A DNA stretch of 40,313 nucleotides from Escherichia phage Mt1B1_P3: the sequence record MT496969.1. One strand, given 5' to 3'. Shown one piece after another: positions 203-39,050 of the stretch. The notes beneath the pieces are model-generated. The model was not told the DNA's origin, ran no database searches, and saw only the letters and a program-made list of their open reading frames with translations. The stretch's first letter is position 1. Each line of letters begins with the position of its first letter. The translations under genes were made by a program, and so were the position numbers.

Positions 203-240
203 TGTGGTCTCAAACTTTTGGTCCAAAACTCATCGTCACT

Positions 241-3107: not shown

Positions 3108-3165
3108 AGTTGCCCTCCCGGTTTATCAGATTTCACGTAGAGTCGCCTCCACTAGTTAGTGTTAA

Positions 3166-3205
3166 CCATAAAGGCCACTACATATAGTAATGACCTTGAG
3201 TCTAA
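3166..3205 (-). promoter_or_regulatory. Putative RNase III processing hairpin (R18.5-like)
   Basis: Conserved element ATAAAGGCCAC-N10-ATGACCTTGAGTCTA also at 26682-26719 and 33882-33921; imperfect stem AAGGUCA/UGGCCUU in minus RNA; located between genes 18 and 18.5 as in T7. Confidence 0.45.
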
Positions 3206-3208
3206 CAC

Positions 3209-3472: not shown

Positions 3473-3666
3473 GTTTTACCACTGCCTCCTTTAATCGTTT
3501 TGTAGACTAGCACACCAATCTGGACAACGGTGTACGCGATAGCTGCAACGTAGAACCATTCGTTCAGTGTAAGTCCGAAGAAGAACCGACTGGCACCATC
3601 AGCCGCAGCGGTCCCGACGATAGGAGAGGCTTTAAGGACCTCATTCTTGAAGTCTAACTCAATCAT
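3469..3666 (-). CDS. 17.5: Holin (gp17.5-like, class II)
   Basis: 65 aa with hydrophobic core (FFFGLTLNEWFYVAAIAYTVVQIGVLV) and charged C-terminus; T7 gp17.5 position. Confidence 0.75.
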   Translation of the reverse strand: MIELDFKNEVLKASPIVGTAAADGASRFFFGLTLNEWFYVAAIAYTVVQIGVLVYKTIKGGSGKT

Positions 3667-3777
3667 AAAACCTCCAGTTTAAAGCGGGTCGTCCGTGACC
3701 CAAAGTTGTTACCTTATGTTGTTTAGCGTGTAGTTAGCCTCTACCTCCACAACTTAATGGCAAAAGGGTTTTGTTTA

Positions 3778-6700: not shown

Positions 6701-6972
6701 CTAGCTGTCAACACTGAGCCATTCCTGAAGTCTACCACTAAGTCAGTTCCAGTCTGACGGTGAATACGAACGATGTCGAAACCTGATTGGTCAACCAACA
6801 TCTCAATCATCGTTGGATTAAGGAATCGGTAATCTCGACCAACTTCCAGTACACGGTTTAGGGTAGGGTTAGAGCTATTCACCAGCGTAACAACAATAAA
6901 CGTTCTGGCTAGGTAGTCGAACTCAATCCTGTACTGAGTGTTTCCTGAAGGGAATTGTGTAATCGTGGACAT
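3778..6972 (-). CDS. 17: Tailspike endosialidase (endo-N-acetylneuraminidase) with T7 gp17-like N-terminal adaptor and C-terminal intramolecular chaperone domain
   Basis: 1064 aa. N-terminus (FDYLARTFIVVTLV...DYRF...LVDFRNGSVLTASDL...IHIAEEGRD) aligns to T7 tail fiber N-domain; two Asp-box motifs SGDDGQTW and SRDIGQTW (sialidase beta-propeller); C-terminal GNDARIHFGVIAQQIRDV...AVLCYDKY resembles autocleaving chaperone domain of K1F endoNF. AGGAGG-CATA-ATG start. Confidence 0.93.
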   Translation of the reverse strand: MSTITQFPSGNTQYRIEFDYLARTFIVVTLVNSSNPTLNRVLEVGRDYRFLNPTMIEMLVDQSGFDIVRIHRQTGTDLVVDFRNGSVLTASDLTNSELQAIHIAEEGRDQTVDLAKEYADAASSSAGNAKDSEDEARRIAESIREAGRLGYITRRSFEKGYNVTTWSEVLLWEEDGDYYRWDGTLPKNVPAGSTPETSGGIGLGAWVSVGDAALRSQISNPEGAILYPELHRARWLDEKDVRGWGAKGDGVTDDTAALTSALNDIPVGQKINGNGKTYKVTSLPDISRFINTRFVYERIPGQPLYYASEEFVQGELFKITDTPYYNAWPQDKAFVYDNVIYAPYMGSDRHGVSRLHVSWVKSGDDGQTWSTPEWLTDLHPDYPTVNYHCMSMGVCRNRLFAMIETRTLAKNALTNCALWDRPMSRSLHLTGGITKAANQQYATIHVPDHGLFVGDFVNFSNSAVTGVSGDMTVATVIDKDNFTVLTPNQQTSDLNNAGKNWHMGTSFHKSPWRKTDLGLIPRVTEVHSFATIDNNGFVMGYHQGDVAPREVGLFYFPDAFNSPSSYVRRQIPSEYEPDASEPCIKYYDGVLYLITRGTRGDRLGSSLHRSRDIGQTWESLRFPHNVHHTTLPFAKVGDDLIMFGSERAENEWEAGAPDDRYKASYPRTFYARLNVNNWNADDIEWVNITDQIYQGGIVNSGVGVGSVVVKDNYIYYMFGGEDHFNPWTYGDNSAKDPFKADGHPSDLYCYKMKIGPSNHVSRDFRYGAVPNRAVPVFFDTNGIRTVPAPMEFTGDLGLGHVTLRASTSSNIRSEVLMEGEYGFIGKSIPTDNPAGQRTIFCGGEGTSSTTGAQITLYGANNTDSRRIVYNGDEHLFQTADVKPYNDNVIALGGPSNRFTTAYLGSNPIVTSNGEKKTEPVVFDDAFLDAWGDVHYIMYQWLDAVQLKGNDARIHFGVIAQQIRDVFIAHGLMDENSTNCRYAVLCYDKYPRMTDTVFSHNEIIEHTDEEGNVTTTEEPVFTEVVIHEEGEEWGVRPDGIFFAEAAYQRRKLERIEARLSALEQK

Positions 6973-7018
6973 TATGCCTCCTGTTATGAATTAAAGGAGA
7001 CCTATGGTAGCGCCTCCC

Positions 7019-7041
7019 GTTTCCTATAGTGATAGTTTAGT
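7019..7041 (-). promoter_or_regulatory. Phage RNAP promoter phi17, TSS about 7024
   Basis: Minus strand ACTAAACTATCACTATAGGAAAC immediately upstream of the tailspike gene. Confidence 0.65.
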
Positions 7042-10000
7042 CCTTGATGTGGATACCTTGCTCCTCAAACGTTCCAAGCAACAGCTTCTGGGTAATTGGG
7101 TCGTTCGGAACCAGTTCACGGAACGTATTATACATCCCGGTCATGTAGTCACGCTCGTTGACACGAGTATCCGCCTTGAGGTAGCCAGCCAAGTTGTAAG
7201 CCGAAGCGCCAACGTTAGCAGCATATCCGAAAGCTGGAACCTGCTCCAAGAAGTTACCAACAACATTCATCACAGGGCCACTTGTAGCTGCACCATACGC
7301 GATGGCACGTTCAGGCTTCTCTGTAGGCGAACGAGGTAGGATAGACGAACGGAGCATCTTAGTGTCCTCATACCCAGCGATGCCACCCAGAATGTTAGCT
7401 ACCCCAAGTGGTCCACCAAGATGTGAACTACGTGATAGAGCTGCATATCCAATCATCGTCGGGTCTAGAGCTTGCTTGAGGTAGTCACGGTCTCGACCAT
7501 CCTGCATAGCGTAAGCCTTGACGTGCGCCTGAGCCATGTAGTAGATACCAGCCAGACCCATAGACATCACAGTGGACAAGGCAGCGTCCATCGCTCGGTT
7601 GTTCTTCGTGGCGTTATAGAAGGTTCGCATGGTACGTCCATTGATGGACTTGATGACGAAGTTCTTAAACTGAAGGACAGTCTTAGCGAGAGGACCATAA
7701 GCCTTGGCGTCCATGTTGGACAGCTTGTGGGGCCGGAGTAACGTTTCGTCAGCGATGGTGTCACCCATACGCCATAGGTCCATAGCCCTTGGGTCCTGAC
7801 TGAACGCCTTCTTATCCTTGATGGTATACTTCCCGTCTGGACCACGAGTCACTGACTCACGGATTAGGGACTTAATGCCCTTCCACTGCTCGTCAGAGAT
7901 ACCAGCGGTCTTCAGCCAGCGGTCATCGAACTTACGCTTACTACCAGTCAGGCTATGCTCCACGATGTCAGACAGGAAGCCTTGACGTCCAGCATCTAAC
8001 AGGTAGTTGGTCGTACCGTTGAGGACTTTAGTGAACGGAGAGCGTACTGCAAGTTCGCCAGTGTAATACTTGGCAGTCCCCAGAGCTGTAGCTGCACCAC
8101 GACCGAGGTCACTGTAAGATCGCAGACGGTCAATGACATCCTGTTTAGACGGACGGATTGAGTCATCCAGCTCCTTACCAAAGATAACATTGTGCAGGTC
8201 CTTAATCTCTGAGGCCCCAACTTTCTTGTTACGGAAGGCTAGGTCACGGAAAATTGGGACTCCATGCAGCATTGCGCGAACGTTACCACGGGCCAGCATA
8301 CCACCAATCTCCGTTAAGTTCTGAACACCCATATAGGCATTCTTAGCGAAGAACGATAGGTCTGTCATTGTGCGCATCACGGCAGCGAAGGCTGCATCGT
8401 CAGCCCCATCACGTCGAGAACGACCAGTTAGAATCTTCAGTGTGTCACGCAAGGTAGATACTTCACCTTTCAACTTTCCGTCATCACCAGCCTTGTTCAT
8501 CATGGTCTCAACCAAGTCCTTCATTTCTTTCGTTGTCTTGCCTGTACCAGCCATAATAGCAATGTCACCATTAACTCGACGGTTGTATGCCGGGACAATC
8601 TTGTCCATGTCCCACTCACGCAGGTTGTTGACACTGAAGGTCTGACCGTTAGGCAGGACGATTGACATATCGCTATCGAACAGGTTACGAGCCTCAAGGA
8701 AGCTGTTGTTCTCCAGACCAACCAGACCGTTGATGTTCTCTTCCATTACGGATGAACGTTCGAACTGCTCGGTGTGGGAGATACCGTAAGCCTTATCGTT
8801 GGCGTACTTATCGACCGCAGCCGCAAGCCCTTCTGGAGTCAACGTAGGGTCAGACTCTAAGAGTGCCTCGTCCACGCGTTTCTTGACTTCAGGTCGAGAC
8901 GCATAGCTGGTCAACCATGACTTCTTGATGGCCTCCTGCAACGCCTCTGGACTCCCAAGCTCCTTGGTGTACAGCTCCTTCATCTGTTTGCTATACACAT
9001 GAGGGACGTAGGTTCCCTTGAAGCGGCTACCCGGAAAGATAGACTGAGCATCTGACCGACCAAACATAGCTGGGTTCTCCATCATCTCACGCTTGGCGTC
9101 AAACTGGTTCTTCAGTAGGTCATAGACTTTAAGTTCTCCCGGAGTCAGTTCAGCCTTCAGGTTTCCGCTGCCATCTTCGATAGCCATAGACACGCGCTGG
9201 TAGATGTCCTGACGGAATGCTCCAGAGTCTCGCCAGAATGCTGTCTGGAAGTACGGGTCCTTTAGTGCCTCAGTAACCGCATCGTCGATGTCGTTGTAGA
9301 ACCGATGGTCCACAGCACGAAGCCTCTCGAACACGTCTGACGCAGTTGTCCCTATTTTACCTGAGGCCCCAGACTGCATACCAGTCGGTGAACGTACTAA
9401 GTCAGCAGCTACTCCACGAATCTCAGGGTTATCAGACCGAAGCAGCTTCAGGCCAATCTCGGTAAGTCCACCAAGGTTCACACCAGCAGCGGCACGTTCT
9501 GGCTCAATCACTTCGTCGAAGACTTGACGTGTCTTAGGGTTCAGAGGGTTCTCACCAATCAGGATTGAACCATCTTCTAATCGTACACTTCCCGGCTCAT
9601 TAGGAACGTCAGCGAACTTAACGCCTTGATGACTAAAGGTCTGCTCACCTTCCTGAATAGGAAGACGAGACAGGTCCTGACCATCAACGTTACGAGCGGT
9701 CTCACGAGCTTCCAGACGTGTAGCTGGGCCAGCAAACTCATTAGTGTTGCGACCTAAGGCTCTGCCTAACCCATCAGCGATGGCAGTCATACCACCACCA
9801 AAGAGAGCACCACCAAGGATAGCTTCAGCCACATGAGCATCCCCACCAGCCACTGAGGTACGGGCCATCTCTGATACACCAGCAAGTGCTCCAGATTGAG
9901 CAGCCACGGTGAACATCTTGTTGACTAGCTTCGCACCTTTGCCAACCTGTCCAGCGATAGGAACATAGGTCAGCGGGTCTACACCAGCACCAATCACACC

Positions 10001-10924
10001 AGCTGCTAGCTGAGCACCAGTCCCAGCCTTGGCCTTCTCTTGGTCCAACTTCTGGTTCTCAAGCGCCAAGTTAATAAGCTCAGTCAGGTTCTGAGGAGAG
10101 CCACCCGTAATGACACCGTAATACTGAGGGAGAACTCCAGCGTTACGAATCTGGTCCAGCTCCTCACGAGACCACTTATGGTTGTTCCAGCGGGTAGGGT
10201 TGAACACATCGCCAATGACATCAAGTGAGTCCTCGGTCTGACCAGCGCGGATAGCCACGCCGACCATAGAGTTCTTCACTTCAGCTTCTGTAGCCGCGCC
10301 GAAACCGAACCACGTAGAGCGATCCTCTCGTTCCTGCATGGTCTCGCCAGTAGACTTATAGAACATCTCACCGAACGATTCGTTGGGAGCTTCAGGTGCT
10401 TGACCCTCAATGTTTAGACCAGCAGCGGTCGGAAGGTTCTCACCCAGAGCTACTTTAGGTTTAGCCTTGAGTCCTTCCGTGAGTGCGTCAAATACGTTAG
10501 CGCTTACTGGTGGAGTCTTTGGGCTAATGCCGTTAAGTGCTCTTTCGACTCCCTTCTGATAGACTTCAGGATTGTACCGGGAGCCTGTCTCATGGAAGCT
10601 AATAGCTTGCGCCAGAGCAGACAGGGTGTCAGGGTTCGATAGGTCGAGACTCTGGGTAGCTGGAATACCAGTTGCAGCCACCACTGAGTCAATATAAGCC
10701 TTAGTGTCATTCTCGTTAGGAGGCGCCCATCTGTTGATAATCTTCTCGATGGAGTCATAACCTTGGCGACCGTAGGACAGCAGGTTTTTACCTAAAGCTC
10801 GGACGCCAGACTCTGGACTATCGAAGGTGACGAAGGCGCCATCATCTCCAGTCATTCCTTCCCATTGGTCCTTACTTACCCGTATATTACCAGGATTGTT
10901 ATTGCGAATACCACGAGTCGCCAT
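7037..10924 (-). CDS. 16: Internal virion protein D (gp16) with N-terminal lytic transglycosylase-like domain
   Basis: 1295 aa, size and position of T7 gp16 (1318 aa); N-terminal region typical of gp16 muralytic domain. Confidence 0.92.
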   Translation of the reverse strand: MATRGIRNNNPGNIRVSKDQWEGMTGDDGAFVTFDSPESGVRALGKNLLSYGRQGYDSIEKIINRWAPPNENDTKAYIDSVVAATGIPATQSLDLSNPDTLSALAQAISFHETGSRYNPEVYQKGVERALNGISPKTPPVSANVFDALTEGLKAKPKVALGENLPTAAGLNIEGQAPEAPNESFGEMFYKSTGETMQEREDRSTWFGFGAATEAEVKNSMVGVAIRAGQTEDSLDVIGDVFNPTRWNNHKWSREELDQIRNAGVLPQYYGVITGGSPQNLTELINLALENQKLDQEKAKAGTGAQLAAGVIGAGVDPLTYVPIAGQVGKGAKLVNKMFTVAAQSGALAGVSEMARTSVAGGDAHVAEAILGGALFGGGMTAIADGLGRALGRNTNEFAGPATRLEARETARNVDGQDLSRLPIQEGEQTFSHQGVKFADVPNEPGSVRLEDGSILIGENPLNPKTRQVFDEVIEPERAAAGVNLGGLTEIGLKLLRSDNPEIRGVAADLVRSPTGMQSGASGKIGTTASDVFERLRAVDHRFYNDIDDAVTEALKDPYFQTAFWRDSGAFRQDIYQRVSMAIEDGSGNLKAELTPGELKVYDLLKNQFDAKREMMENPAMFGRSDAQSIFPGSRFKGTYVPHVYSKQMKELYTKELGSPEALQEAIKKSWLTSYASRPEVKKRVDEALLESDPTLTPEGLAAAVDKYANDKAYGISHTEQFERSSVMEENINGLVGLENNSFLEARNLFDSDMSIVLPNGQTFSVNNLREWDMDKIVPAYNRRVNGDIAIMAGTGKTTKEMKDLVETMMNKAGDDGKLKGEVSTLRDTLKILTGRSRRDGADDAAFAAVMRTMTDLSFFAKNAYMGVQNLTEIGGMLARGNVRAMLHGVPIFRDLAFRNKKVGASEIKDLHNVIFGKELDDSIRPSKQDVIDRLRSYSDLGRGAATALGTAKYYTGELAVRSPFTKVLNGTTNYLLDAGRQGFLSDIVEHSLTGSKRKFDDRWLKTAGISDEQWKGIKSLIRESVTRGPDGKYTIKDKKAFSQDPRAMDLWRMGDTIADETLLRPHKLSNMDAKAYGPLAKTVLQFKNFVIKSINGRTMRTFYNATKNNRAMDAALSTVMSMGLAGIYYMAQAHVKAYAMQDGRDRDYLKQALDPTMIGYAALSRSSHLGGPLGVANILGGIAGYEDTKMLRSSILPRSPTEKPERAIAYGAATSGPVMNVVGNFLEQVPAFGYAANVGASAYNLAGYLKADTRVNERDYMTGMYNTFRELVPNDPITQKLLLGTFEEQGIHIKD

Positions 10925-10928
10925 TATG

Positions 10929-13211
10929 TTACTCCTTACCGATTAGTACGTTTGCGATACCCTCCAATGAGACGTCATTGTACATCCCTCCGCGCTTCTC
11001 GATGTTGGCCTCTCGGTCAGCTCGACGTTTGTCACCGGCAGCTTTGGTCCCGACGATACGCGCTCGCTTGTTAGCGTCACGTTCTGCCTGAGCGTATGCG
11101 GCATCTTGTGCCTTCTGCTGTTGTTCGCGGTAGAGTTTACCTACAAGTTCTTTATCGTAGCGAATACGAATAGTACCTGTAGCGTCTTGGAGGAAGATAG
11201 AGCCATTCTGTTCAACAACGGACAACTGAGAGTTCACTACCCAAGGGTTGGCATTAATGAGCTGCTTACGAGCGGTGTCGATAATGTCTCGACCAGCCTG
11301 CCACGACTCTGGGTTATCCCCTACCATAAGCTGGTGCTTTGACACCATGCCGATGGACTTACCGTCAGAACCTTCAGACTGGAACGTTACGGTGTTCTCA
11401 TTCAGCCAGCGTTGAGTCTGCTGCGTTGCAGCGTCAGCGTTACCTGTACGATAGTACCATGAGTCCCAGACCTTACGAGCACTTGAGTCCAGAGACGTTG
11501 GGAGGCGAGACAACTGGGTGTTCTTGGAGTCGTTCTTCAACTCCTGCCACGCCTTGTCTGACTCCATGCGCATCTCACGGCTTTGACTTGCAGCTTGCTT
11601 ATCAGCTTCAATCATCGTCTGAGGGTCCAGACCCATCTTGTCCATCTGGTCGAACGTAGAGAACAACTGAGCTTGGTCAGGATACAGAGCAGCGAAACTT
11701 GAAGGGTCCTGAGTGTAGGCACGACGAAGAGACTCGAAGCGTTGCATCTTGTCTGGGTCGTACTGTCCACGGATGACAGCAGCTTGCCACTCACCAGCAG
11801 CGTCCTGAGTAAGAGTCTGGAAGGCATTACGGAACGGACCGTTGTTAGTGTCAGCTCTTAACAATGCCACCTTCTGGGCGTCCTTAGCAGCCTCAGGGAT
11901 GTCCATCTGGTCAATCTGCTGTAGCTTAGAAGACGCATAGTTGTTCATGTCTGAACGCTTGAACTCTCCTGTGGCTTCAGAGACCGGAAGGTCCTCATAG
12001 TTGGTGGACACGTTGTCTCCAGCCAGACGTCGCTGATAAACTTGGTCAATGACAAGTTGCTTGTTCTGGGTCTGGATTAACTTCGTGTTCTCCTTCGCCT
12101 GTTCAGCAGACTTACGCTTTACCGCTTCCAGTAAGCTGGCTTCGGCATTAATAAGCATCTGACGCTGAGGTGTGAGTTCTTCACCCGGTTGAAGCAGGTT
12201 GTTCTGCTCCTTGAGTTTCTGAATCTGGGCAAGACCGATGGTTGGGTCGTCCTGAAGAATCGCAGACTGAACGCCTAACGCTAAGTCTTCCTGATACTTA
12301 GCCACCAGCTTGTACTCAGTTCCTTGTGCCTCAACAATAGCAGCGTTGAAGACATCAGGTCCTACAATCTCTTCGACTGTAGCATCCACACCGTTAAGTG
12401 TGATTCGCTCGCCTCGTACTTGCTGTAGGAAGTTTGAGCCGCCTGACTTCTGGATTGCGTCACGTACAGTCTGGGTAATGACCTCACGCGCTCGCTGGTC
12501 CGAGGGGATAGCAGCAGTAGTCAGTCCGTCACGAAGGTAGGTCATGAATGTCTTGCCAGACTCAGGTGAACGCATCAGGTCGCCATCGTTCAGGAATGAG
12601 TTCATCTCAATACGGGTGTTCAACATTGCTGTCTCTTCAGACTGCTTGCTGAAATACTTATTGAAAGACCCATAGATAGCTATGTTGCGGTCTGTGATGT
12701 TATCGTTGAACCCACGCTGGAAGAACTCGTCTGTAGGGTTAATACCCGCCTCTTCAGCATAGGACTTAGCGGCGTCCTGAAGTCGCTGGTGGCGATACTC
12801 TTCCATGTCCTGACGTGTACGGAACTCACCGTTCTGAATCTTAACGTTAATCTCGTCGTCTACAGCAAAGGCAGCATTACGACCAGTCTTGACTCGAAGT
12901 GCTTCCATAGCGTAAGGGTCATCCTGATACAGCAATGTGCCGTTCTGGATAGCCTCACGTCTTTGCTGAGGTGTCAGTTTACGGATAATCTCGTTAGACC
13001 GCTCGTCAGCTCTGGTCTTCTCCTCGTCCTTGAACTGCTTGTACAATCCAGTCCCAGACTCAACGAAGTTGGTCAACGCACGAGCCAGACCGGAGTCACC
13101 AGTTGGAGCCTGAACGCTGGCTGCTTGATAGTTGACGGCGATAGTTTTACCAGGCGCTCTGCCACGACCCATAGTCCGATTAGCCAGAGCTGATTCAATA
13201 TTACTAGCCAT
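10929..13211 (-). CDS. 15: Internal virion protein C (gp15)
   Basis: 760 aa vs T7 gp15 747 aa; position between gp14 and gp16; GGAGG RBS. Confidence 0.88.
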   Translation of the reverse strand: MASNIESALANRTMGRGRAPGKTIAVNYQAASVQAPTGDSGLARALTNFVESGTGLYKQFKDEEKTRADERSNEIIRKLTPQQRREAIQNGTLLYQDDPYAMEALRVKTGRNAAFAVDDEINVKIQNGEFRTRQDMEEYRHQRLQDAAKSYAEEAGINPTDEFFQRGFNDNITDRNIAIYGSFNKYFSKQSEETAMLNTRIEMNSFLNDGDLMRSPESGKTFMTYLRDGLTTAAIPSDQRAREVITQTVRDAIQKSGGSNFLQQVRGERITLNGVDATVEEIVGPDVFNAAIVEAQGTEYKLVAKYQEDLALGVQSAILQDDPTIGLAQIQKLKEQNNLLQPGEELTPQRQMLINAEASLLEAVKRKSAEQAKENTKLIQTQNKQLVIDQVYQRRLAGDNVSTNYEDLPVSEATGEFKRSDMNNYASSKLQQIDQMDIPEAAKDAQKVALLRADTNNGPFRNAFQTLTQDAAGEWQAAVIRGQYDPDKMQRFESLRRAYTQDPSSFAALYPDQAQLFSTFDQMDKMGLDPQTMIEADKQAASQSREMRMESDKAWQELKNDSKNTQLSRLPTSLDSSARKVWDSWYYRTGNADAATQQTQRWLNENTVTFQSEGSDGKSIGMVSKHQLMVGDNPESWQAGRDIIDTARKQLINANPWVVNSQLSVVEQNGSIFLQDATGTIRIRYDKELVGKLYREQQQKAQDAAYAQAERDANKRARIVGTKAAGDKRRADREANIEKRGGMYNDVSLEGIANVLIGKE

Positions 13212-13222
13212 TAGTCCTCCTC

Positions 13223-13810
13223 TTAGCTATGACCTGTAGGTGTGCCTTTAGCAGCACTAATTGGTGCAGCACCACCAGAGCTGGACGCTCCAGAGATTGC
13301 CTTACCAGCGGCGTAACCTTGCATCCCGGCGTTAGCAACATTAAGTGCATGAGCCAGTGGGCTGGTCTTGATGATTTTACCTTGACCACGGATAGCAGAC
13401 TTGGTGTTCTCAATGTTGGCGATACGGTTCCCGAAGATAGCCGCATAGTCGCGGTTGTAACTTTCGGTAATCCCTGCTCGCTCCTTGACTGTATCTCCTG
13501 CGACCTGACGTTCAATCCTGTCCATAGAGTTACCTTCCAGACCGGACTCAGCTACCGCAGCTCTGACCATACCCTGATTGCGGATACCGTTGAGCGTGGT
13601 CTCTGTCAGTTCAGCCATCTGCTGCTCCTTCAGGTCTCGCTCCTGCATCTTCAGGTTGGCGTCAGAGTAGTTCATCTGCTTAACCATTTCCTGAGACTGT
13701 CGGTTCTGAGCGTCAATTGCTGCACCTTCAGCCTTGGCCTGTTGGGATGCGGACATAGTGGCGCCAGCTACAGACATGATACCTAGACCGATACTTACTG
13801 GCTCGCACAT
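13223..13810 (-). CDS. 14: Internal virion protein B (gp14)
   Basis: 195 aa vs T7 gp14 196 aa; position; AGGAGG RBS. Confidence 0.85.
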   Translation of the reverse strand: MCEPVSIGLGIMSVAGATMSASQQAKAEGAAIDAQNRQSQEMVKQMNYSDANLKMQERDLKEQQMAELTETTLNGIRNQGMVRAAVAESGLEGNSMDRIERQVAGDTVKERAGITESYNRDYAAIFGNRIANIENTKSAIRGQGKIIKTSPLAHALNVANAGMQGYAAGKAISGASSSGGAAPISAAKGTPTGHS

Positions 13811-14265
13811 ACGTCCTCCTTAGAGATAGTGAATAGTTGAAAACGCTCACCAGTTACTGGGCTTACAGTCCAATCATCATGGAATTTAGCCCCAAGCAAC
13901 TTCAAGAATTTAATGTGAGACTTATTGCCTGACCACACGTAGTTCCAGATGGTCCCGTATTGGTCTAACATTAAGTCCCTGTACTCAGAGATACGCTTTA
14001 TGAACTCCCGCTTCTCTTTAGGTCTCAGCTTATAGACAAGACCAGAAGTCAAGAACCATACGTTATCCCCTTGGTTTCCACCATAAGCAAACACTTCGCC
14101 TACACCGTTCGTTAAAACCACAGATGATGGAGATAGGTGCTTAAGCAGTCTTTCAGAGAGACCAACGGTTGACCCATAGTTTGCTTTGCACTCATTAACA
14201 TCATCTGCTGAAAGATGCCACAGAAAGTAGTGGACATCTGGTTCCGTAGCCTTGCGAATATACAT
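13795..14265 (-). CDS. 13: Internal virion protein A (gp13)
   Basis: 156 aa; position downstream of phi13 promoter; GGAG RBS. Confidence 0.75.
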   Translation of the reverse strand: MYIRKATEPDVHYFLWHLSADDVNECKANYGSTVGLSERLLKHLSPSSVVLTNGVGEVFAYGGNQGDNVWFLTSGLVYKLRPKEKREFIKRISEYRDLMLDQYGTIWNYVWSGNKSHIKFLKLLGAKFHDDWTVSPVTGERFQLFTISKEDVCASQ

Positions 14266-14294
14266 AAAGTCTCCTTATAACCTTAAGGGCCTAT

Positions 14295-14317
14295 AGTCCC
14301 TATAGTGATAGTTAAGG
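14295..14317 (-). promoter_or_regulatory. Phage RNAP promoter phi13, TSS about 14300
   Basis: Minus strand CCTTAACTATCACTATAGGGACT; embedded between 12-bp perfect inverted repeats (14285-14296 / 14323-14334). Confidence 0.65.
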
Positions 14318-14341
14318 TAAATCTATAGGCCCTTCAATAAG

Positions 14342-16699
14342 TTAGACGGAACGAGCTTTCTTAGCGTATGACGCCTCCCAGCCACATCCAACGATTGACA
14401 CTGGGGTAGGATAGTCGGACTCTAAGGTTAGACTCGTGGTTAATGCGTTACCATTCATAGCGAAGCGATACTGCCCGTCACCAATGTTAGTAGTCCCTAT
14501 GGTCTGCTGACCAAGTGTGTACCCATTAAAGGTGTTAACGAACTCTCGCTCACCGTTTCTGACAATGAGTCTCAGAGCGCCAGTGTCCTTGTAGTTGACC
14601 CAAGCCCGACGAAGCTGTAGACGACCAGTGTCTTCAGACTGAGTGCCACTATCATCTTCAATCTTAATCAGGAACCGTGAGAACTTGTAGGACATCAGAT
14701 AGGGCCGCCCGATGAACACTGTACGTCCTGACCAATCGCCGTTGAGGGTAATCACAGTAGAGATACTGGTCAAGTCCCCAAGGTCCAAATAAGCACCCTG
14801 ACTGTCAATCAGATAGTACCGACCGGGAGACGGAGCATTACCACCATAAGCAGCACCAATGTCAACCGTAGTCTTATATGTGTCAGCATTAAACGAGCCA
14901 ATTGGGATGACCATAGACACCTTGGAGTCAACGTGGAGTCTATACGGCTCTGATGGAAAGTCAGTTGCCTCCTTGATGAACTTAAGGTGCTCAAGGTCCA
15001 CGCCGCCTTGGTGCTGACGAACAATGAACATGGTAGAGCCAATCGACGCAGACGCCAGAATCTTATCAGCTTTAGGGAACTCCCAGTGAGACCAAGAGGC
15101 TTGAAGCTGTACGCCGTCCTTAAACAAGAACTTGTAGAGGTAGATTCGGTTGTATGCACCTGTAGAGTTGACGCAGATGTAGTTCTCAGTCCCTGTTCCC
15201 TGAATGTCAAACACCCCGTTAGGGATATAGGATAGTACGTGACCAGTGGTATCATCGGCATCCTTCACGTCAGACACATCTGCTACAGCGAAGTATCGCT
15301 TAATGCTGGTGAATGACCCACGAGGCGCTGAGAAGAAGACTGAGCGTCCTACAGCGAACGGTCTGGCATTATCTCCTAAGGCAAACTCTGAGCCTACATC
15401 AAGCTGGATAGACTTCGAGGTAAGGACCCCTGAGCTTGTCATCACGAACTGCACTTCATCTGACCAAAGTAGTAGCTGCTCGCTAAACGGAACGGCATAC
15501 TTAAGGATTGAGATTCTAGGGTGACTTACAGCTACATCAATAGGGTCATCATCACTCAGTGTCGCCACACTCTTAGGGAAGAACGCAAAGTAGCTTGCTG
15601 AACGGCTCATGATTACGTTCTCGCCTGACAAGAACCCTAGCCTGTTCCTGTAGAAGAACACATCGTTAATCGTAGCATCCACGAAGCTAGGCATAGGGCT
15701 TGTGTCATCATTACCAGCACCACGCTTAGACCAGTCCAGAGCCTTGAACTCAAAGGAGCCATCAGATTGTCGTACCAGAGCGTGTGGCATTGTGGTGTTA
15801 TCGAACCCAGTGACAACTCCCGGCTCCACTGTCTCCTTCCACGTCTTAGTGTTGGAGTCATACATCACGTAGTATTCATCGGCGCTACTGTTTGTCTCAC
15901 CTTGAATCTTAATGATATACCCATTAGGAGCGGCAAGAGGTAGTTTAGAGATTGTCTGCACAGTGTCTAGGACTGGGCTTATTAGCTGGTTAGCGTAGCC
16001 ATCCTCCGTCTCCACTGAGTTAATATCGGTCCCTGAAGGAGCTGTGATTAGCAGGAATCCAGACCCAAGGTCAAACGTGAAGGTAGGGTAGGCAGTAACA
16101 AGAAGGTCTCTCAGAGCTGCACCAATGGCTTGAGCGTCCACCTTAGGCGGGTCATTCTCGGCATCATTACCTGCTGGTAGCTTATGCGAGACCTTAACGC
16201 CACCGTTGATTCCCACCTTAAGGGTTCGACCATACTGTCCACCACGTAGGTTAATTAAAGCTCGTGCTTTGCGGTTATAACCAGAGTGTGACTTCTCGCT
16301 TCCACCTTTGACGACAACCTTACGGTTAACGACGAACGTATAGTCTGCCACGGTAACGACACGGATGTCATCTCGTGGGTTGGAGGACTTAACGTAGTCT
16401 ACCGAACCTGACACTGCGTATTGATTACCACTCAAGTCAACTACCTGAATGTTTGACCCATTGAACACGATGTAATACTGCTCCTGCTCATCACGGTTAA
16501 TCAGGTGGAACTTAGGGTTGCTTCCAACGTCGATGTTAAGACGTCGCTTGAAGACTGTAGGTGGGCGCTTCTGGAGGCCATCACTCTCGGATGACCAGCA
16601 GTTAACTTGTGCTTCGCCTTGGTCTGAGAACCTCAGTATGTCTGGCTGCTGGCTAATACCACCTTTAAGGTTCTTGATTGATTGAGTAATTAGTGGCAT
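14342..16699 (-). CDS. 12: Tail tubular protein B (gp12)
   Basis: 785 aa vs T7 gp12 794 aa; AAGGAGGG RBS. Confidence 0.93.
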   Translation of the reverse strand: MPLITQSIKNLKGGISQQPDILRFSDQGEAQVNCWSSESDGLQKRPPTVFKRRLNIDVGSNPKFHLINRDEQEQYYIVFNGSNIQVVDLSGNQYAVSGSVDYVKSSNPRDDIRVVTVADYTFVVNRKVVVKGGSEKSHSGYNRKARALINLRGGQYGRTLKVGINGGVKVSHKLPAGNDAENDPPKVDAQAIGAALRDLLVTAYPTFTFDLGSGFLLITAPSGTDINSVETEDGYANQLISPVLDTVQTISKLPLAAPNGYIIKIQGETNSSADEYYVMYDSNTKTWKETVEPGVVTGFDNTTMPHALVRQSDGSFEFKALDWSKRGAGNDDTSPMPSFVDATINDVFFYRNRLGFLSGENVIMSRSASYFAFFPKSVATLSDDDPIDVAVSHPRISILKYAVPFSEQLLLWSDEVQFVMTSSGVLTSKSIQLDVGSEFALGDNARPFAVGRSVFFSAPRGSFTSIKRYFAVADVSDVKDADDTTGHVLSYIPNGVFDIQGTGTENYICVNSTGAYNRIYLYKFLFKDGVQLQASWSHWEFPKADKILASASIGSTMFIVRQHQGGVDLEHLKFIKEATDFPSEPYRLHVDSKVSMVIPIGSFNADTYKTTVDIGAAYGGNAPSPGRYYLIDSQGAYLDLGDLTSISTVITLNGDWSGRTVFIGRPYLMSYKFSRFLIKIEDDSGTQSEDTGRLQLRRAWVNYKDTGALRLIVRNGEREFVNTFNGYTLGQQTIGTTNIGDGQYRFAMNGNALTTSLTLESDYPTPVSIVGCGWEASYAKKARSV

Positions 16700-16708
16700 A
16701 GGCCCTCC

Positions 16709-16936
16709 TTAAATCATACTCATTAGGACGTATCCCTCAGCGATGTCACCAACGTCAGCAATGTGGACAACCTTACGTGCTACCTGTTGTCCAGTATACC
16801 CGTTGTCCCACTCATTCAGGATAAGCCAATCGCCAACCTTAAAGTCCCGGTCGTTAAGTCTCAGCTCTGCTGTCTTTAGACCTAGTTGTACCGGACCAAA
16901 GTGCTGGCGGTGAATCTTCAGGTTGTGACTAGCCAT
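16709..16936 (-). CDS. Small ASCH/PUA-like (DUF3850-like) protein inserted between tail tubular genes
   Basis: 75 aa MASHNLKIHRQHFGPVQLGLKTAELRLNDRDFKVGDWLILNEW...: HxLKIxxxxFxxVxxGxKTxExRxNDRDxxVGDxLxLxEW pattern typical of DUF3850. ATG overlaps gp11 stop (TAATG), GGAGGG RBS. No T7 counterpart at this position. Confidence 0.75.
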   Translation of the reverse strand: MASHNLKIHRQHFGPVQLGLKTAELRLNDRDFKVGDWLILNEWDNGYTGQQVARKVVHIADVGDIAEGYVLMSMI

Positions 16937-17502
16937 TAGTCCCTCCCGATGTCAGACATCATGTTGTAGCGACCAGTGTCCATCTCGTACTCCATAACCT
17001 GCTGATAGAGTTCTGCTTCCTGCTCACGAAGGTATAGCTCTGACTCTGGGCTACCGAAGAACTTAGCGTTGAACTCACGGCTAGCTTTAGTGACGATGTA
17101 GTCCCTGAAGACCACAGGCATCTCGGAGAATGGCTTCATCTCCACAAGCTCTACCGTGATGGGGTCGGTGAAAGTGGTTGACTGAGTGGATAGGTCGTAC
17201 AGGTATCCACCCATGTTGCTGTAGTAGCTGGTGGCCCCAGCGGTCATTACGCGAAGGTATGACGGCAAGAATCGAATCCTATTGTCTTGGACATCAGGTG
17301 TCAGGACAGCAGCTTCATTGATATTAAAGTTCCAGCCTTTAGCTTGGACCTGACGATTGACACGATGCAGGATACGTTGAGCGTTCGAGACGTCAGCGTT
17401 CCCCTCGTCAAGCTGTAGGACTGCTGGTTCACCGATAGCAGCTAACATATCGTTGATGGCGTCTAAGTCATCGTTAGCATTCAGTGGAATGTATTGAGCC
17501 AT
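16936..17502 (-). CDS. 11: Tail tubular protein A (gp11)
   Basis: 188 aa; aligns with T7 gp11 (DAINDMLAAIGEP..., NAQRILHRVNRQVQAKGWNFN). Confidence 0.93.
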   Translation of the reverse strand: MAQYIPLNANDDLDAINDMLAAIGEPAVLQLDEGNADVSNAQRILHRVNRQVQAKGWNFNINEAAVLTPDVQDNRIRFLPSYLRVMTAGATSYYSNMGGYLYDLSTQSTTFTDPITVELVEMKPFSEMPVVFRDYIVTKASREFNAKFFGSPESELYLREQEAELYQQVMEYEMDTGRYNMMSDIGRD

Positions 17503-17618
17503 AGGTTTACTCCTTAACGGTCATAGGCGCTAGACGGTGAGCTGGACAGCAGGTACGCCCAGAATAAGACGAATAGTGCTAACCCTGTGTAAATAAGGAC
17601 CATAGTACCTCCTTAAGC

Positions 17619-17654
17619 AAAAAACCCCTCAAGCACCCGAAGGCACCCAAGGGG
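17619..17654 (-). terminator. Tphi-like terminator downstream of the capsid gene
   Basis: Minus RNA CCCCUUGGGUGCCUUCGGGUGCUUGAGGGG followed by UUUUUU; near-identical architecture to T7 Tphi (AACCCCTTGGGGCCTCTAAACGGGTCTTGAGGGGTTTTTTG). Confidence 0.8.
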
Positions 17655-17660
17655 TTTCAA

Positions 17661-18835
17661 TTAGTTGTTGGACTCAGCCAGTTTAGCGGCCCTGTTCGCA
17701 GCACGAGTACGCGCAGCTTTCTGTTGAGGAGTTAGAGTCTCCTCTTCAGGTGCAGCCGCTACTGTAGCGACGTTAGGTTGGCTAAAGGTGCTTACGCCGC
17801 TGGGCTGAAAACCAGTGCGCCAGCCGCTTCAGGACGCAGACCACCGTGACCCATAGCGTATTTACCAACAATCAGGTCGCCCTGAGCATCTACGTCACGG
17901 TCACGTTCCAGCGCCAAGTCACGCAGCTTCACAGTACCCACAGCAGAACGGTGAGAGAACAGACCAACAACGTTGTCCATAGCAACTTTAACGTCGCCAG
18001 TAGCAGTTGCCGGGAATGCGTGTTTCTGACCGGAAGCGATAGAGATGCCATCGTCACCACGAGTCTCACCAGCGCCACCCTGTACCAGATGCGGAACTTC
18101 AACAACAACGAAGCCCATCACGTTACGGATGTTACCAGTCTCTGGGTCAATCAGCGCAGCATAGTTAGCAGCGTTCGGCATCAGAGCCGCTAGGATTGCA
18201 GAGTAGTTGTCCGGCGTGGTGTAGAAGTAACGGTCGCCAGCAGGAACGTAGTTGGAGGTCAGCTTCGCACGAGCAATGGTCAGTTGACCAATGATTGCTT
18301 CACCCAGTTTAGCCGGGGTGTTGAGGTCAGCTTTCTTGCCAACTTCCAGTACTGACGCAGTGCCCAGACCCACGATGTTCTCGTTGGATGCAGCCGGTAG
18401 GTTACACAGGATCGCCATTTCAGCCAGCACCGCACCATCAGCAGCGATAGCCAGAGCTTCGCCCAACTGGTTGGAATACTCGCCAGCCACGTCGTAGTGG
18501 TTCATCGCGTCTTCAATGTCGAAAATCATCACATCGGCAGTCAGCAGACCATCAATGGTAATCACTTTCTCGGTATGTTTGATACCTTTACGCTTATCGG
18601 ACAGTCGCTCACCCGGAGCCAGATACACACCAGAGGTGCGACCCATGACCGGGAACTGAGCAGACTTACCGTTCTGAATGGTACGGACAATATGCTTGTC
18701 AGCAGTTACAGAGCGGCGAGTGAATGCGGTCAGGACTTCACCAGCAAATACCTTCAGGAACAACGCCAGAGCGTCTGAACTGGATTTGCCTTTACCTTGG
18801 TCTGTACCAATTTTCTGACCCGGAACGTTTGCCAT
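17661..18835 (-). CDS. 10B: Minor capsid protein 10B via -1 programmed frameshift near codon 343
   Basis: Slippery G GUU UUC (plus-strand 17807-17813) 4 codons before the 10A stop, as in T7; -1 frame stays open for about 47 codons (…QPSGVSTFSQPNVATVAAAPEEETLTPQQKAARTRAANRAAKLAESNN) and stops 7 nt before Tphi. Confidence 0.6.
17792..18835 (-). CDS. 10A: Major capsid protein 10A
   Basis: 347 aa, highly similar to T7 gp10A throughout (DKLALFLKVF-like N-terminus, ...AKYAMGHGGLRPEAAGA); GGAGA RBS as in T7. Confidence 0.97.
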   Translation of the reverse strand: MANVPGQKIGTDQGKGKSSSDALALFLKVFAGEVLTAFTRRSVTADKHIVRTIQNGKSAQFPVMGRTSGVYLAPGERLSDKRKGIKHTEKVITIDGLLTADVMIFDIEDAMNHYDVAGEYSNQLGEALAIAADGAVLAEMAILCNLPAASNENIVGLGTASVLEVGKKADLNTPAKLGEAIIGQLTIARAKLTSNYVPAGDRYFYTTPDNYSAILAALMPNAANYAALIDPETGNIRNVMGFVVVEVPHLVQGGAGETRGDDGISIASGQKHAFPATATGDVKVAMDNVVGLFSHRSAVGTVKLRDLALERDRDVDAQGDLIVGKYAMGHGGLRPEAAGALVFSPAA

Positions 18836-18937
18836 ATGATAATTCTCCTATTCAATTGAAAGATAAAGTTTATTACTTACTGTATGCCCAATCCGTATGG
18901 ACTGAAGTAATAGGGAAACCTTGAGTCTATCTCTTGG

Positions 18938-18960
18938 TCTCCCTATAGTGATAGTTTAGT
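18938..18960 (-). promoter_or_regulatory. Phage RNAP promoter phi10, TSS about 18943
   Basis: Minus strand ACTAAACTATCACTATAGGGAGA; initiating GGGAGA identical to T7 class III promoters; directly upstream of capsid gene. Confidence 0.7.
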
Positions 18961-18961
18961 C

Positions 18962-19882
18962 CTACAGGCTTGAGGCAGCTACCTTAGCGCGAACTTCCAT
19001 AGTGTATTTAGCGTCACGCAGGTATCGCGGGTCACTCATGGCCTTAATCATGTCAGCCTTGGAGCTGAATGCTTCGGTCTGAGGAGCCTTAGGTGCGACC
19101 ACAGGTTTAGCCTGAGTGGTGATGGTACGCTGAGGTTTAACACCCACAGCTTTACCCAGAGTCTTGCCAGCCAGATTCAGCAGAGCTTTGGTAGTCGCAA
19201 TGTCCTTACGAACGATAGCAGCTTCCAGTGCTTCACGAGTTGATGGGTCGTTGGACTCAAGGTGTGACAGGATGCGATTAAACTGTTCAGCTCCGCCAGC
19301 GTAGCGAACCACACCAGCAGCATACTGTTCAGCCAGAGCTTCCTGACCACGGACAAACGAATCTACGAAACGCTTGGTGTAACCTGCTTCCTGCAACTTA
19401 GCGTAGGATGCGTCAGACAGCTTACCGTCCTTGGCGTATTCAGCCTTGATAGCGGTAATTTCATCAGCAGTGACCTTGCCGGCTTCTACAGCAGAAGACA
19501 CCATGTCGTCAAATGCAGCTTCGTTTTCATCCAGAGCGGTGACACTTTCGGTCAGCTCTTTAGGTGCATCACCAAGTTCTACGAACTCAGGTTGCTCACC
19601 ATCTGTCTCAGACTCTTCGTCATCTGACTCGTGGTCTTCTTCACCTTCAGTCTCTTCGACGTTTTCGTCTTCTTCGGTCGCCTCTTCGTTTTCGGCTTCC
19701 AGTTGCTTGAAGGTAATAGCGTCATCGCCATCACGAACAGCTACGTCCTGTTCAAGCATAGACTTCTGGTGTTCGTTCAGGTCCTCAACGGAACCAGTGA
19801 TTGCATTAGAGCTAACGCCGAACTCGGCATAAACTGATTGAGACATTAAGTCATTCTCCTTTAAGTCGTTAATAGGAAACAC
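18962..19882 (-). CDS. 9: Capsid assembly (scaffolding) protein gp9
   Basis: 306 aa, strongly acidic with Glu/Asp-rich tract; T7 gp9 is 307 aa at same position. Confidence 0.88.
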   Translation of the reverse strand: MFPINDLKENDLMSQSVYAEFGVSSNAITGSVEDLNEHQKSMLEQDVAVRDGDDAITFKQLEAENEEATEEDENVEETEGEEDHESDDEESETDGEQPEFVELGDAPKELTESVTALDENEAAFDDMVSSAVEAGKVTADEITAIKAEYAKDGKLSDASYAKLQEAGYTKRFVDSFVRGQEALAEQYAAGVVRYAGGAEQFNRILSHLESNDPSTREALEAAIVRKDIATTKALLNLAGKTLGKAVGVKPQRTITTQAKPVVAPKAPQTEAFSSKADMIKAMSDPRYLRDAKYTMEVRAKVAASSL

Positions 19883-22778: not shown

Positions 22779-22801
22779 AGTCCCTATAGTGATAGTTTAG
22801 T
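22779..22801 (-). promoter_or_regulatory. Phage RNAP promoter phi6.5, TSS about 22784
   Basis: Minus strand ACTAAACTATCACTATAGGGACT. Confidence 0.65.
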
Positions 22802-22927: not shown

Positions 22928-23794
22928 TTACATGGGTGGTGTCCACAGGATGACCTCCTTGGACTTAGGGTCATAGTCGGAGGCTCGACAAATACGAGCG
23001 ACCTGAGCTTGGACCAGAAGTTCCTCCTCGGTCATCCCAGCTTTAGCAGCCAGAGTAACCATGCAGTCCCACAGCGTCATGTCTTCACGCTTTGGATACT
23101 TCTTCCACTCAGTCTTAATCTGGCCTTTGTTCTTGCCAGTCTTAAGCTCACGGCTCTCCTGCACGAAGTAGTACGGCTCGTCAAGGAACACACGAGTGGT
23201 GTCCTCACCCATCCCCGGAATCCCGCCATAGCCATCTGTAGTGTCACCCTTGATGGTCTGCTCCATGTGCCAGTAGTCTGCCTCGGCAGTCGTATGACTC
23301 AGTATTTCACCAGTGGTTAACCAGAAGAACTCACAGTTTGGGATGGTCTTGAAGTCCTTGTCACAGGACACCAGAACCGCATGGTCACATCCGACAATCT
23401 GAGGTCTGGTCCCGATGATGCCCATACAGTCATCACCCTCAAGCGTAGGACGCAGGAAGCTGTTGAACCGTGGGTCAGCCATCACTTCGGCTACGAACTT
23501 CTTGTAACCTACAGGCTTGCGAGAACCTTTACGGTTGGCCTTATAGGTAGGCAGGATGGACTTGCGCCAGTTCTCATCATCGGTGAAGCACATCACAATC
23601 TTAGCGTCTTTCCACGCCTTGCGCTTCTTAACGATTTCAGCGATGGTGTTCTCAAGGATACGACGAGCCTTGGCGTGGTCGCAGATAAGGGTATAAATAT
23701 CATCGCCCCAGTCTGTCTCGTCCTCGGCAGCAGCCATAGAAGAGAAGACCAGATAGTCACCATCCAGAACCAGAGCTATTTTCTTCTCTGACAT
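22928..23794 (-). CDS. 6: 5'-3' exonuclease gp6
   Basis: 288 aa; aligns with T7 gp6 (LVxDGDxLVF, CDHAKARxILE, KANRK, CDKDFKTIPNC, WDC...KAGMTEE); AGGAGG RBS. Confidence 0.95.
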   Translation of the reverse strand: MSEKKIALVLDGDYLVFSSMAAAEDETDWGDDIYTLICDHAKARRILENTIAEIVKKRKAWKDAKIVMCFTDDENWRKSILPTYKANRKGSRKPVGYKKFVAEVMADPRFNSFLRPTLEGDDCMGIIGTRPQIVGCDHAVLVSCDKDFKTIPNCEFFWLTTGEILSHTTAEADYWHMEQTIKGDTTDGYGGIPGMGEDTTRVFLDEPYYFVQESRELKTGKNKGQIKTEWKKYPKREDMTLWDCMVTLAAKAGMTEEELLVQAQVARICRASDYDPKSKEVILWTPPM

Positions 23795-24012
23795 TATGCC
23801 TCCTCAACGATGCAAACTGAAGAGAAGGCACGTACCGTTTCGACTTCCTCGGTCATTCCCTTCCAGCGGATATACGTCTCGTGTTTGATGGCTACCGACT
23901 TTGGCATTACCCGGGCTACTTCCCCTATACGCATAGCGTATGACTTACCAGCTAGGCAGAAAGCAACTTTTTGACCTACCTTAAGTTCTCGGCCTGATAC
24001 GTCTTGACTCAT
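23794..24012 (-). CDS. Hypothetical basic protein at the gene 5.9 position (not gp5.9-like)
   Basis: 72 aa MSQDVSGRELKVGQKVAFCLAGKSYAMRIGEVARV...; GGAGG RBS; coupled ATGA/TAATG overlaps on both sides. Unlike acidic T7 gp5.9. Confidence 0.65.
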   Translation of the reverse strand: MSQDVSGRELKVGQKVAFCLAGKSYAMRIGEVARVMPKSVAIKHETYIRWKGMTEEVETVRAFSSVCIVEEA

Positions 24013-24218
24013 AGACAGCCTCCGTGTTGGTTCAGGAACTTGGTGCCTTCAGCAGTAATCTCCCACGCACCGTTGTTACGCCCATCCATAGACAGGCAGC
24101 TTAGATGTCCACGACTCGCAGCCTCAGCCACAAGTGCAGCGTTATTGCGCACATAGTTGGACTGGAAGGTCTTCGGGCAGGACTTAAGGGCCGCTAGGAC
24201 CCGTAAGTATTCACTCAT
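24009..24218 (-). CDS. 5.7: gp5.7 homolog
   Basis: 69 aa; close to T7 gp5.7 (KSCPKTFQSNYVRNNAxLVAEAASRGH). Confidence 0.88.
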   Translation of the reverse strand: MSEYLRVLAALKSCPKTFQSNYVRNNAALVAEAASRGHLSCLSMDGRNNGAWEITAEGTKFLNQHGGCL

Positions 24219-28648: not shown

Positions 28649-28671
28649 CATCCCTAAGGTGATAGTTTAGG
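28649..28671 (-). promoter_or_regulatory. Variant phage promoter upstream of gene 4, followed by 5' hairpin
   Basis: Minus strand CCTAAACTATCACCTTAGGGATG (two changes at -4/-3 vs consensus); transcript would begin with GGGACA-N8-UGUCCC hairpin (plus 28630-28649). Confidence 0.5.
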
Positions 28672-38352: not shown

Positions 38353-38520
38353 CTATGGTAAATATTTCTTGTCCTCAGCGTGTAGGCTGTCGTGTATGCG
38401 CTTGCGTCTCCTGTAGACCACTTTCAAGAGGCGCATAGACTCCTCGTGGTTTAATCTCCCGGTCTTGACCATAAGCCGGGCGTTGGTGACGTGGTGCTGG
38501 CAGAGACCATAAGTTACCAT
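38353..38520 (-). CDS. Small early ORF (55 aa), hypothetical
   Basis: Hand translation MVTYGLCQHHVTNARLMVKTGRLNHEESMRLLKVVYRRRKRIHDSLHAEDKKYLP; ATG overlaps Ocr stop (TGATG), GAGGAGG 10 nt upstream. Confidence 0.4.
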   Translation of the reverse strand: MVTYGLCQHHVTNARLMVKTGRLNHEESMRLLKVVYRRRKRIHDSLHAEDKKYLP

Positions 38521-39050
38521 CACTCGCAGTCCTCCTCAGCAGCCTCAGGATCGAACACTACGTTATCGTTGATGTCTTCGACCTGCATGTGAAAACCTTC
38601 CTCATAGAGTTCTTTTGCACATGCAATAGCCTCGCAAAGTGATACAGCTGCCTCAATTATCTCGCCTGTTCTAGTGTCAACTACCCAATATTCAGCCTTT
38701 TCGTCCTCCTCTTCAGCCTTTTCGTCTTCCTCTTCAGCCTCAAACCAGACCACCTCAGAGCTATTAGACACATCGTTATACAGTGCCTCATAGATGCGAG
38801 CTTGTAGTATACGCGTTACGTCCTTGGTCTCAGGCATCAGCCCAGAGTCTTCGAACTCATTGTCAATACCATCAGCAGCCATCACCGTGTAAATCTCGTG
38901 GTAATAATGCGGAACATTACCGTCTACGACCTCATGCAGCGCATCACTGTAGTCATCGCCTTCAGCTATTTCGTCGCACTGAATACGCTCATTGAACAGC
39001 TCAACGGTTGCAGCCAGCAGCTCATAGTATGCGTTAGCGTTACGTTCCAT
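38520..39050 (-). CDS. ocr: Ocr-like DNA-mimic anti-restriction protein (gp0.3) with C-terminal extension
   Basis: Core [47 protein letters not shown] matches T7 Ocr ([46 protein letters not shown]); 176 aa vs 117 aa in T7, with duplicated EEDEKAE and about 55 extra C-terminal residues. Confidence 0.9.
   Translation of the reverse strand: [176 protein letters not shown]
38690..38740. repeat. 21-bp tandem duplication inside ocr (encodes EEDEKAE x2)
   Basis: cagccttttcgtcctcctctt / cagccttttcgtcttcctctt adjacent copies on plus strand. Confidence 0.8.

Follow-up and report, generated by a model that had tools for sequence, protein, structure and literature searches.

The gene 5.9 protein of bacteriophage T7 is a DNA-mimic inhibitor of RecBCD that forms an alpha-helical coiled-coil dimer, and RecBCD modulators that do not act by mimicry also exist, such as Abc2 of phage P22, which binds RecC (PMC9836394). 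Of the small Tudor-like barrels, the C-terminal domain of ProQ is known to drive RNA duplexing and strand exchange (PMC9977716). The DNA analysed here, referred to as the window, is a stretch of 40,313 nt from Escherichia phage Mt1B1_P3 (MT496969.1), a K1F-like T7 relative (Kayfunavirus) whose genes lie on the minus strand of the window. Over the 1.6 kb compared, it is 100% identical to an unannotated record, Kayfunavirus MT1B1P3 (OZ035815.1). A sequence-only reading of it had remarked that the place held in T7 by gene 5.9 is taken here by a 72-aa basic, non-acidic protein coupled to both of its neighbours, and had proposed that the phage either handles RecBCD by another mechanism or relies on other protection.

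The 72-aa gene occupies positions 23794..24012 (minus strand) and starts with ATG. As had been described, it lies between a gene 5.7 homologue upstream (24009..24218, minus strand; 69 aa, 77% identical to T7 gp5.7, phrog_1334 E 1e-38) and the gene 6 5'-3' exonuclease downstream (22928..23794, minus strand; Pfam PF02739, 5_3_exonuc_N, E 3.5e-9; phrog_107 E 4e-79), and the peptide quoted in the earlier description corresponds to its residues 7-35. The coupling on both sides is plainly visible in the sequence. The ATG of the 72-aa gene (24012-24010) and the TGA of gp5.7 (24011-24009) share an ATGA overlap (24009..24012, minus strand), and the TAA of the 72-aa gene (23796-23794) and the gene 6 ATG (23794-23792) share a TAATG overlap (23792..23796, minus strand). 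A GGAGG ribosome-binding site (24019..24023, minus strand) stands 6 nt before the ATG, and a GAGGAGG ribosome-binding site for gene 6 (23799..23805, minus strand) is contained in the final codons (EEA) of the 72-aa gene itself. The K1F-type promoter consensus has 10 matches in the window against 0 expected. The nearest one upstream precedes gene 4 (28650..28670, minus strand; 3 mismatches), and the unit is closed by the phi6.5 equivalent just downstream of gene 6 (22780..22800, minus strand; 1 mismatch), at the same place where phi6.5 is annotated in phage EcoDS1. Since no phage promoter lies between these two, the 72-aa gene is co-transcribed with genes 4 to 6.

Compared with five other Kayfunavirus alleles, the gene has a dN/dS of 0.06-0.09 at a dS of 0.58-0.82, which indicates purifying selection. 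Its product was found by tblastn in 194 phage records from at least five phage groups, and a profile search of 1.84 billion cluster representatives returned 96 related clusters, nearly all of 60-90 aa. The 72-aa ORF is a genuine gene and no chance reading frame.

In its small size, its position between genes 5.7 and 6 and its overlap with the neighbouring genes, the 72-aa protein resembles T7 gp5.9 (phrog_9014). The likeness ends there. T7 gp5.9 has a pI of 4.08 and a charge of -8.5, whereas the 72-aa protein, with 11 K+R against 9 D+E, has a pI of 8.68 and a net charge of +1.6 at pH 7 and lacks the acidity of a DNA mimic; the protein is indeed non-acidic, and "basic" overstates what is a weakly basic character. 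The predicted fold of the 72-aa protein is an all-beta barrel, in contrast to the helical coiled-coil dimer of gp5.9 (PMC9836394). No blastp alignment was obtained between gp5.9 and the 72-aa ORF, and phrog_9014, which gp5.9 itself matches at 5.6e-40, is absent from the PHROG matches of the ORF. Remote homology was considered and rejected, as hhalign of the DUF7205 family profile (see below) against gp5.9 gave a probability of 0.1%. The same holds for a gp5.9 hidden elsewhere in the window, for which the best E values were 0.65 (tblastn, word size 2) and 3.1 (phmmer --max, six frames). These results show that the 72-aa protein shares neither ancestry nor predicted fold with gp5.9 and is no DNA mimic. 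The sequence-only reading had named structure prediction as a check, and homology to gp5.9 on sensitive alignment as a refutation, of its view that a non-acidic protein takes the gp5.9 place; neither approach relates the protein to gp5.9.

A gp5.9 homologue is carried by 187 phage records, which come essentially from the T7/T3/Yersinia-phage clade and many laboratory T7 variants, against 1280 records for gp5.7, and the T7 record marks gp5.9 as "not essential". Absence of gp5.9 is therefore the norm among phages that have gp5.7 and needs no special explanation, and, as gp5.9 is not essential, no replacement is required.

By sequence, the 72-aa gene joins a known, uncharacterised family as a new member. 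It matches phrog_2251, of unknown function, over residues 2-71 (E 3.7e-20), and is 79-93% identical to the other Kayfunavirus copies; the profile PF23835.2 (DUF7205) is precomputed on all of these homologues, and the older profile PF23835.1 is not reached by the 72-aa protein. Across 86 family representatives the most conserved columns are D4 and V16 (100%), G13 (98%), G7 (93%), K38 (91%), G30 (90%) and R61 (83%), with F/Y18 and W/Y50, aromatic positions that might contribute to a Tudor-type cage, also conserved, and the signature D4, G7, G13, V16, G30, K38, R61 is complete in the 72-aa protein. The family is steadily mildly basic (median pI 8.9, median charge +1.8). A metal site is unlikely, because the two cysteines are present in just 29% of the members. 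Uncharacterised phage proteins, for example EcoDS1 AS9_0028 (recorded as "unknown product") or PAK_P4 gp159, are alike in sequence family, in a length of about 70 aa, in the D4-G7-G13-V16-A-F...G30...K38...R61 signature and in their DNA-metabolism gene neighbourhood; from these the 72-aa protein shows no difference of substance, being an ordinary member. The family also includes truncated copies in two Enterobacter phages (P0044, P0045) and fusions, namely a barrel with a zinc ribbon (P0047), an N-terminal domain with a barrel (P0048, P0063) and tandem barrels (P0091, P0130).

Named relatives were sought more widely. The 72-aa protein has no match in NCBIfam or PADLOC, its matches in BFVD are uncharacterised phage proteins only, and among solved structures none is related by sequence, the best hit (Mtd, E 0.24) not being meaningful. 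The family profile detects no paralogue in T7 bases 1-19000. A literature search found no papers on PF23835 or DUF7205, and an accessory-gene screen preprint, an anti-defence catalogue and a phiKMV ligase-repair preprint contained nothing on DUF7205.

AlphaFold2, run on a 29-sequence alignment, returned a confident model (mean pLDDT 89.1, pTM 0.76; five models within about one pLDDT point) with strands at residues 15-19, 27-35, 39-48, 53-62 and 66-70 and no helix of four or more residues. The 72-aa protein is thus predicted to be a five-stranded Tudor/KOW-type SH3-like beta-barrel, and in the model this barrel superposes on Tudor and KOW domains, with values of 8.6 for the Sgf29 Tudor domain, 8.1 for Spt5 KOW, 8.0 for the PHF19 Tudor domain, 7.8 for TDRD3 and 7.3 for NusG. 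A sequence bridge to Tudor is provided by a 1690-aa protein (P0054), which the DUF7205 profile matches in five stretches (E 9e-9) and in which Pfam finds Tudor_5, Agenet, Tudor_3 and SGF29_Tudor repeats. To the "royal family" barrels (the Sgf29, SMN and PHF19 Tudor domains; Spt5 and NusG KOW) sequence identity is 6-19%, and these are parts of larger proteins, whereas the 72-aa protein stands alone. Membership in the KOW family at the level of sequence found no support, hhalign to an approximate sequence of the C-terminal (KOW) domain of E. coli NusG giving a probability of 0.7%.

A Pfam scan at E up to 1 yielded CusF_Ec, Phage_ProQ_C_like, MCP_C and HTH_Tnp_1_2 only, all sub-threshold. Phage_ProQ_C_like (PF24203) is the commonest weak Pfam match in DUF7205, seen in 25/86 members with a best E of 1.6e-4 and always sub-threshold; the 72-aa protein scores 14.2 bits against a gathering threshold of 27, so it is not assigned to that family. 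The phage ProQ C-terminal-like domain is likewise a small Tudor-like barrel found in phages, and the C-terminal domain of ProQ is Tudor-like as well. Unlike ProQ, the 72-aa protein has no FinO/ProQ N-terminal domain.

The family is present in phages of several other groups, with about 150 records from Pseudomonas myophages, including phages used in therapy research. In Pakpunavirus PAK_P4 the DUF7205 gene is two genes upstream of the dCMP deaminase and DNA ligase genes; in Drulisvirus phiKpS2 it lies between the 5'-3' exonuclease and endonuclease VII, in Ralstonia phage RSB2 between the RNA polymerase and the SSB region, and in Warsawvirus phTUNSv between the ligase and the dNMP kinase. Among IMG/VR sequences, T7-like loci carry it directly after the DNA ligase that follows the DNA polymerase (L021) or between the ligase and SSB (L022, L023), a 230-kb contig (L024) carries it between a RecA-like protein and a UvrD-like helicase, and in two further loci (L019, L020) it adjoins primase/helicase genes. 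The common theme of these positions is the replication, repair and recombination module, with no single fixed slot.

We surveyed the junction between genes 5.7 and 6 in two samples. In GenBank, we sampled 47 relatives that a query joining both flanks matched on either side, and examined one representative for every size class. The slot is empty in 13/47 (K1F, JSS1, SH3 and others) and holds the 72-aa gene in 6-7/47. An approximately 91-aa form, present in 3/47, is either the SP7-type barrel with the tail ...EEPKASLMPATVAMATGGLDDGF or the divergent IMM-002 allele, which matches the DUF7205 family profile at E 2e-15. Other relatives have a 149-aa acidic protein (13/47; phrog_4382, charge -17) that ends in the same tail as the SP7-type barrel, a 110-aa acidic protein (8/47; phrog_18166, charge -12), a 66-aa very acidic protein (1/47; GW1, charge -16), an HNH endonuclease (1/47; KE05) or an unannotated 42-aa CxxC...CxxC ORF (1/47; TM1). 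The second sample consisted of 80 IMG/VR loci anchored on gp5.7, with gp5.7 78-100% identical to that of the window. Here DUF7205, counting both alleles, is the commonest single occupant (21/80), acidic families fill 22/80, the slot is empty or reduced to a gap of <45 nt in 24/80, a 54-aa ORF (phrog_12303) is found in 11/80 and other contents in 2/80. Two records classed as Kayfunavirus, "Acinetobacter phage vB_Aba_01KA" and "Enterococcus phage EFA-1", bear unexpected host names.

The 5.7/6 junction of Kayfunavirus- and K11-like phages is therefore a hot spot for cassettes, and at least eight states of it were seen: besides the empty one, there are DUF7205 in two divergent alleles, an HNH endonuclease, ORFs of the zinc-ribbon and 54-aa types and three unrelated acidic proteins. 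No alternative occupant is encoded elsewhere in the window. A junction alignment of five phages differing in slot content shows a conserved left edge, GGAGGCTGTCTATGA; the ATGA overlap of the window is this left junction of the cassette site, and the TAATG overlap is the right one. In the empty state (ASO2B, K1F) the ATG of the left edge is the start of gene 6, which is then coupled directly to gene 5.7. Alignment with the empty slot of ASO2B places the cassettes right after the ATGAG that begins gene 6, and they supply their own ribosome-binding site for gene 6. Between the window and EcoDS1 (L001) the dS of the cassette is 0.70, against 0.10 for gp5.7 and 0.30 for gene 6. A dS so far above that of the flanks indicates that alleles are exchanged by recombination at the 5.7/6 site and that the cassette has its own evolutionary history. 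As the slot may also be empty or filled by unrelated cassettes, the 72-aa gene is, at the level of the phage group, dispensable for the core life cycle and horizontally exchanged.

Several other occupants show features of their own. The 66-aa protein of Cronobacter phage GW1 (L031 392-592), a "putative tail spike protein" in GenBank, matches phrog_4790 (E 1e-12) and phrog_6234 (E 2e-9), both labelled "host RecBCD nuclease inhibitor", labels that are annotations and not tests; it also matches PHROG 6163. It has no similarity to T7 gp5.9, which belongs to another PHROG, 9014. A weak match to phrog_6163 is also seen in residues 90-115 of the 149-aa acidic protein. One tail, ...EEPK(A/V)SLMPATVAMATGGLDDGF, ends both a DUF7205 barrel (SP7, L010 987-1265) and the 149-aa acidic protein (PRF-SP2, L008 987-1436); it overlaps the gene 6 start and is absent from the window allele. 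A related tail occurs in IMM-002 (L029 392-667), and the metagenomic fusion P0047 has LPATMKMAQT after its barrel. With its acidic tip and final Phe, the tail may resemble the C-termini of SSB and T7 gp2.5. The 42-aa ORF in the slot of Escherichia phage TM1 (L030 404-524) has two CxxC pairs (MSLKGLFASRLKCKKCGQHPMLEGYAGSSYWWCLKCNKEVKE) and resembles the zinc ribbon of P0047. In SP7 (vB_EcoP_SP7, L010 128-997), the gene 6 exonuclease is annotated as "DNA polymerase" in GenBank.

The window has nine copies of the E. coli Chi site (GCTGGTGG); a dinucleotide shuffle predicts 1.4 and a synonymous-codon shuffle 3.3, with 0/1000 shuffles of the latter kind reaching nine. They are located at 3046, 9843, 12302, 30419, 32479 and 37946 on the minus strand and at 12785, 17227 and 32242 on the plus strand; five of the six on the coding strand encode Ala-Gly-Gly. 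Compensation for a missing gp5.9, as one candidate for the "other protection" that had been proposed, was considered as a cause of this enrichment and rejected: Chi density is 1.93 per 10 kb in gp5.9-plus T7/T3-like loci (n=17) versus 2.11 in gp5.9-minus loci (n=80; Mann-Whitney p 0.84), and density being equal, the enrichment is a property of the whole group. Of the Chi sites, 98% are on the coding strand in gp5.9-plus loci versus 75% in gp5.9-minus loci, a comparison uncorrected for relatedness. The window also encodes a 176-aa protein (38520-39050, minus strand; net charge -42), residues 7-99 of which match the Pfam family "DNA mimic ocr" (E 2.4e-30); T7 Ocr (117 aa) lacks its extra acidic C-terminal part of about 75 aa.

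Taking into consideration the predicted fold, the gene neighbourhoods and the behaviour of the slot, we favour, with a probability of about 60%, the reading that the 72-aa protein is an accessory Tudor-like binding module and not an analogue of gp5.9. On this reading its gene is an accessory gene of the DNA-metabolism (class II) region, expressed as part of the operon, and the protein would act stoichiometrically as a binding module in phage DNA replication, repair or recombination; a role of this kind is suggested because the protein has no catalytic residues, is small and mildly basic, and is always found among ligase, exonuclease, recombinase or helicase genes. Its most likely ligand would be a nucleic acid (ssDNA, RNA, a DNA end or a nick) or an enzyme, from host or phage, that acts on nucleic acids, and the effect of binding may be a tuning of host range or counter-defence. 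As to the kind of ligand, the evidence leans both ways. The neighbouring genes, the mild conserved positive charge, the conserved residues K38 and R61 and the ProQ-C-like signal below threshold tend to favour a role linked to nucleic acids; a net charge of +1.6 is too small to make a strong case for binding of that kind. In Tudor/SH3-like barrels, proteins are no rarer as ligands than nucleic acids, and the hot-spot location, together with the tail that some alleles have in common with an acidic protein, tends to favour a protein target.

In an explanation that we consider less likely and still worth some weight, the protein would be a protein-binding inhibitor of another host defence or host factor, with a target unconnected to any binding of nucleic acids by the barrel itself. 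A hypervariable accessory locus with unrelated alternatives, a patchy spread over unrelated phage groups and the small size of the protein would all suit such an inhibitor, Tudor-like domains are classic protein-protein modules, and the tail ...LMPATVAMATGGLDDGF, found in some alleles and also on an acidic slot protein unrelated to them, suggests that both dock to one partner. However, that tail is missing from the window allele, neither a PADLOC match nor a known anti-defence relative in the literature searched was found, and a DNA-metabolism role accounts no less well for the constant presence of replication and repair genes nearby and for the steady mild positive charge.

The recurrence of DUF7205 at the slot (two alleles, 21/80) in alternation with acidic proteins leaves room for a shared target, maybe RecBCD. 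In an improbable form of this idea, the DUF7205 barrels and the acidic proteins would be interchangeable solutions, the barrel being a non-mimic effector that acts on a host machine processing DNA ends or nicks. That machine might be RecBCD, some other helicase-nuclease, or a defence system responsive to intermediates of this kind. If true, this would explain why genes for ligase, exonuclease, RecA-like and UvrD-like proteins accompany DUF7205 across unrelated phages.

Also improbable, in our estimate, is a functional replacement of gp5.9 in the strict sense, in which the protein would inhibit or modulate RecBCD by means other than DNA mimicry, such as attachment to a surface of RecB, RecC or RecD. 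The 72-aa gene does hold the gp5.9 position between genes 5.7 and 6, the same slot in sister phages holds small, very acidic proteins, of which that of GW1 matches the "host RecBCD nuclease inhibitor" PHROGs, and the window has no other recognisable RecBCD inhibitor. Position is nevertheless the sole link to RecBCD, so that of the original interpretation the statement that the protein is not gp5.9 holds for sequence, predicted fold and charge, and the RecBCD-handling role is left with location as its argument. The slot is empty in K1F and in about a quarter of the relatives, and since it also accepts an HNH endonuclease, a zinc-ribbon ORF and a 54-aa ORF, its occupants need not have a function in common. 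DUF7205 genes of phages that infect Pseudomonas, Ralstonia and Klebsiella, and those of further T7-like phages, occur away from this slot. The PHROG labels are annotations, with T7 gp5.9 in a different PHROG, and the 72-aa protein itself has no gp5.9 similarity and no RecBCD-inhibitor family in the Pfam scan at E up to 1. That the ORF is spurious or in decay, and persists only for the gene 6 ribosome-binding site and coupling signals, might be suspected from the empty slots, in which gene 6 is coupled directly to gene 5.7, and from the truncated Enterobacter copies, but this is refuted for practical purposes by the low dN/dS (0.06-0.09) at high dS, the confident fold prediction and the conservation seen in some 190 phage records, spread over at least five groups, and in 96 representative clusters.

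T7-like phages were already known to vary at the 5.7/6 junction; the "gp5.9 slot" is no fixed functional position, and function should therefore not be read from position there. The main outputs of this work are the description of the 5.7/6 hot spot and the recognition of DUF7205 as a widespread phage module, Tudor-like by structure prediction, that travels with DNA-repair genes. The occupants of the hot spot, from the two alleles of the Tudor-like barrel and the three acidic proteins to the HNH endonuclease and the zinc-ribbon and 54-aa ORFs, form a small ready-made set for screening host range or counter-defence, and the function of DUF7205, once found, would annotate many genomes at once.
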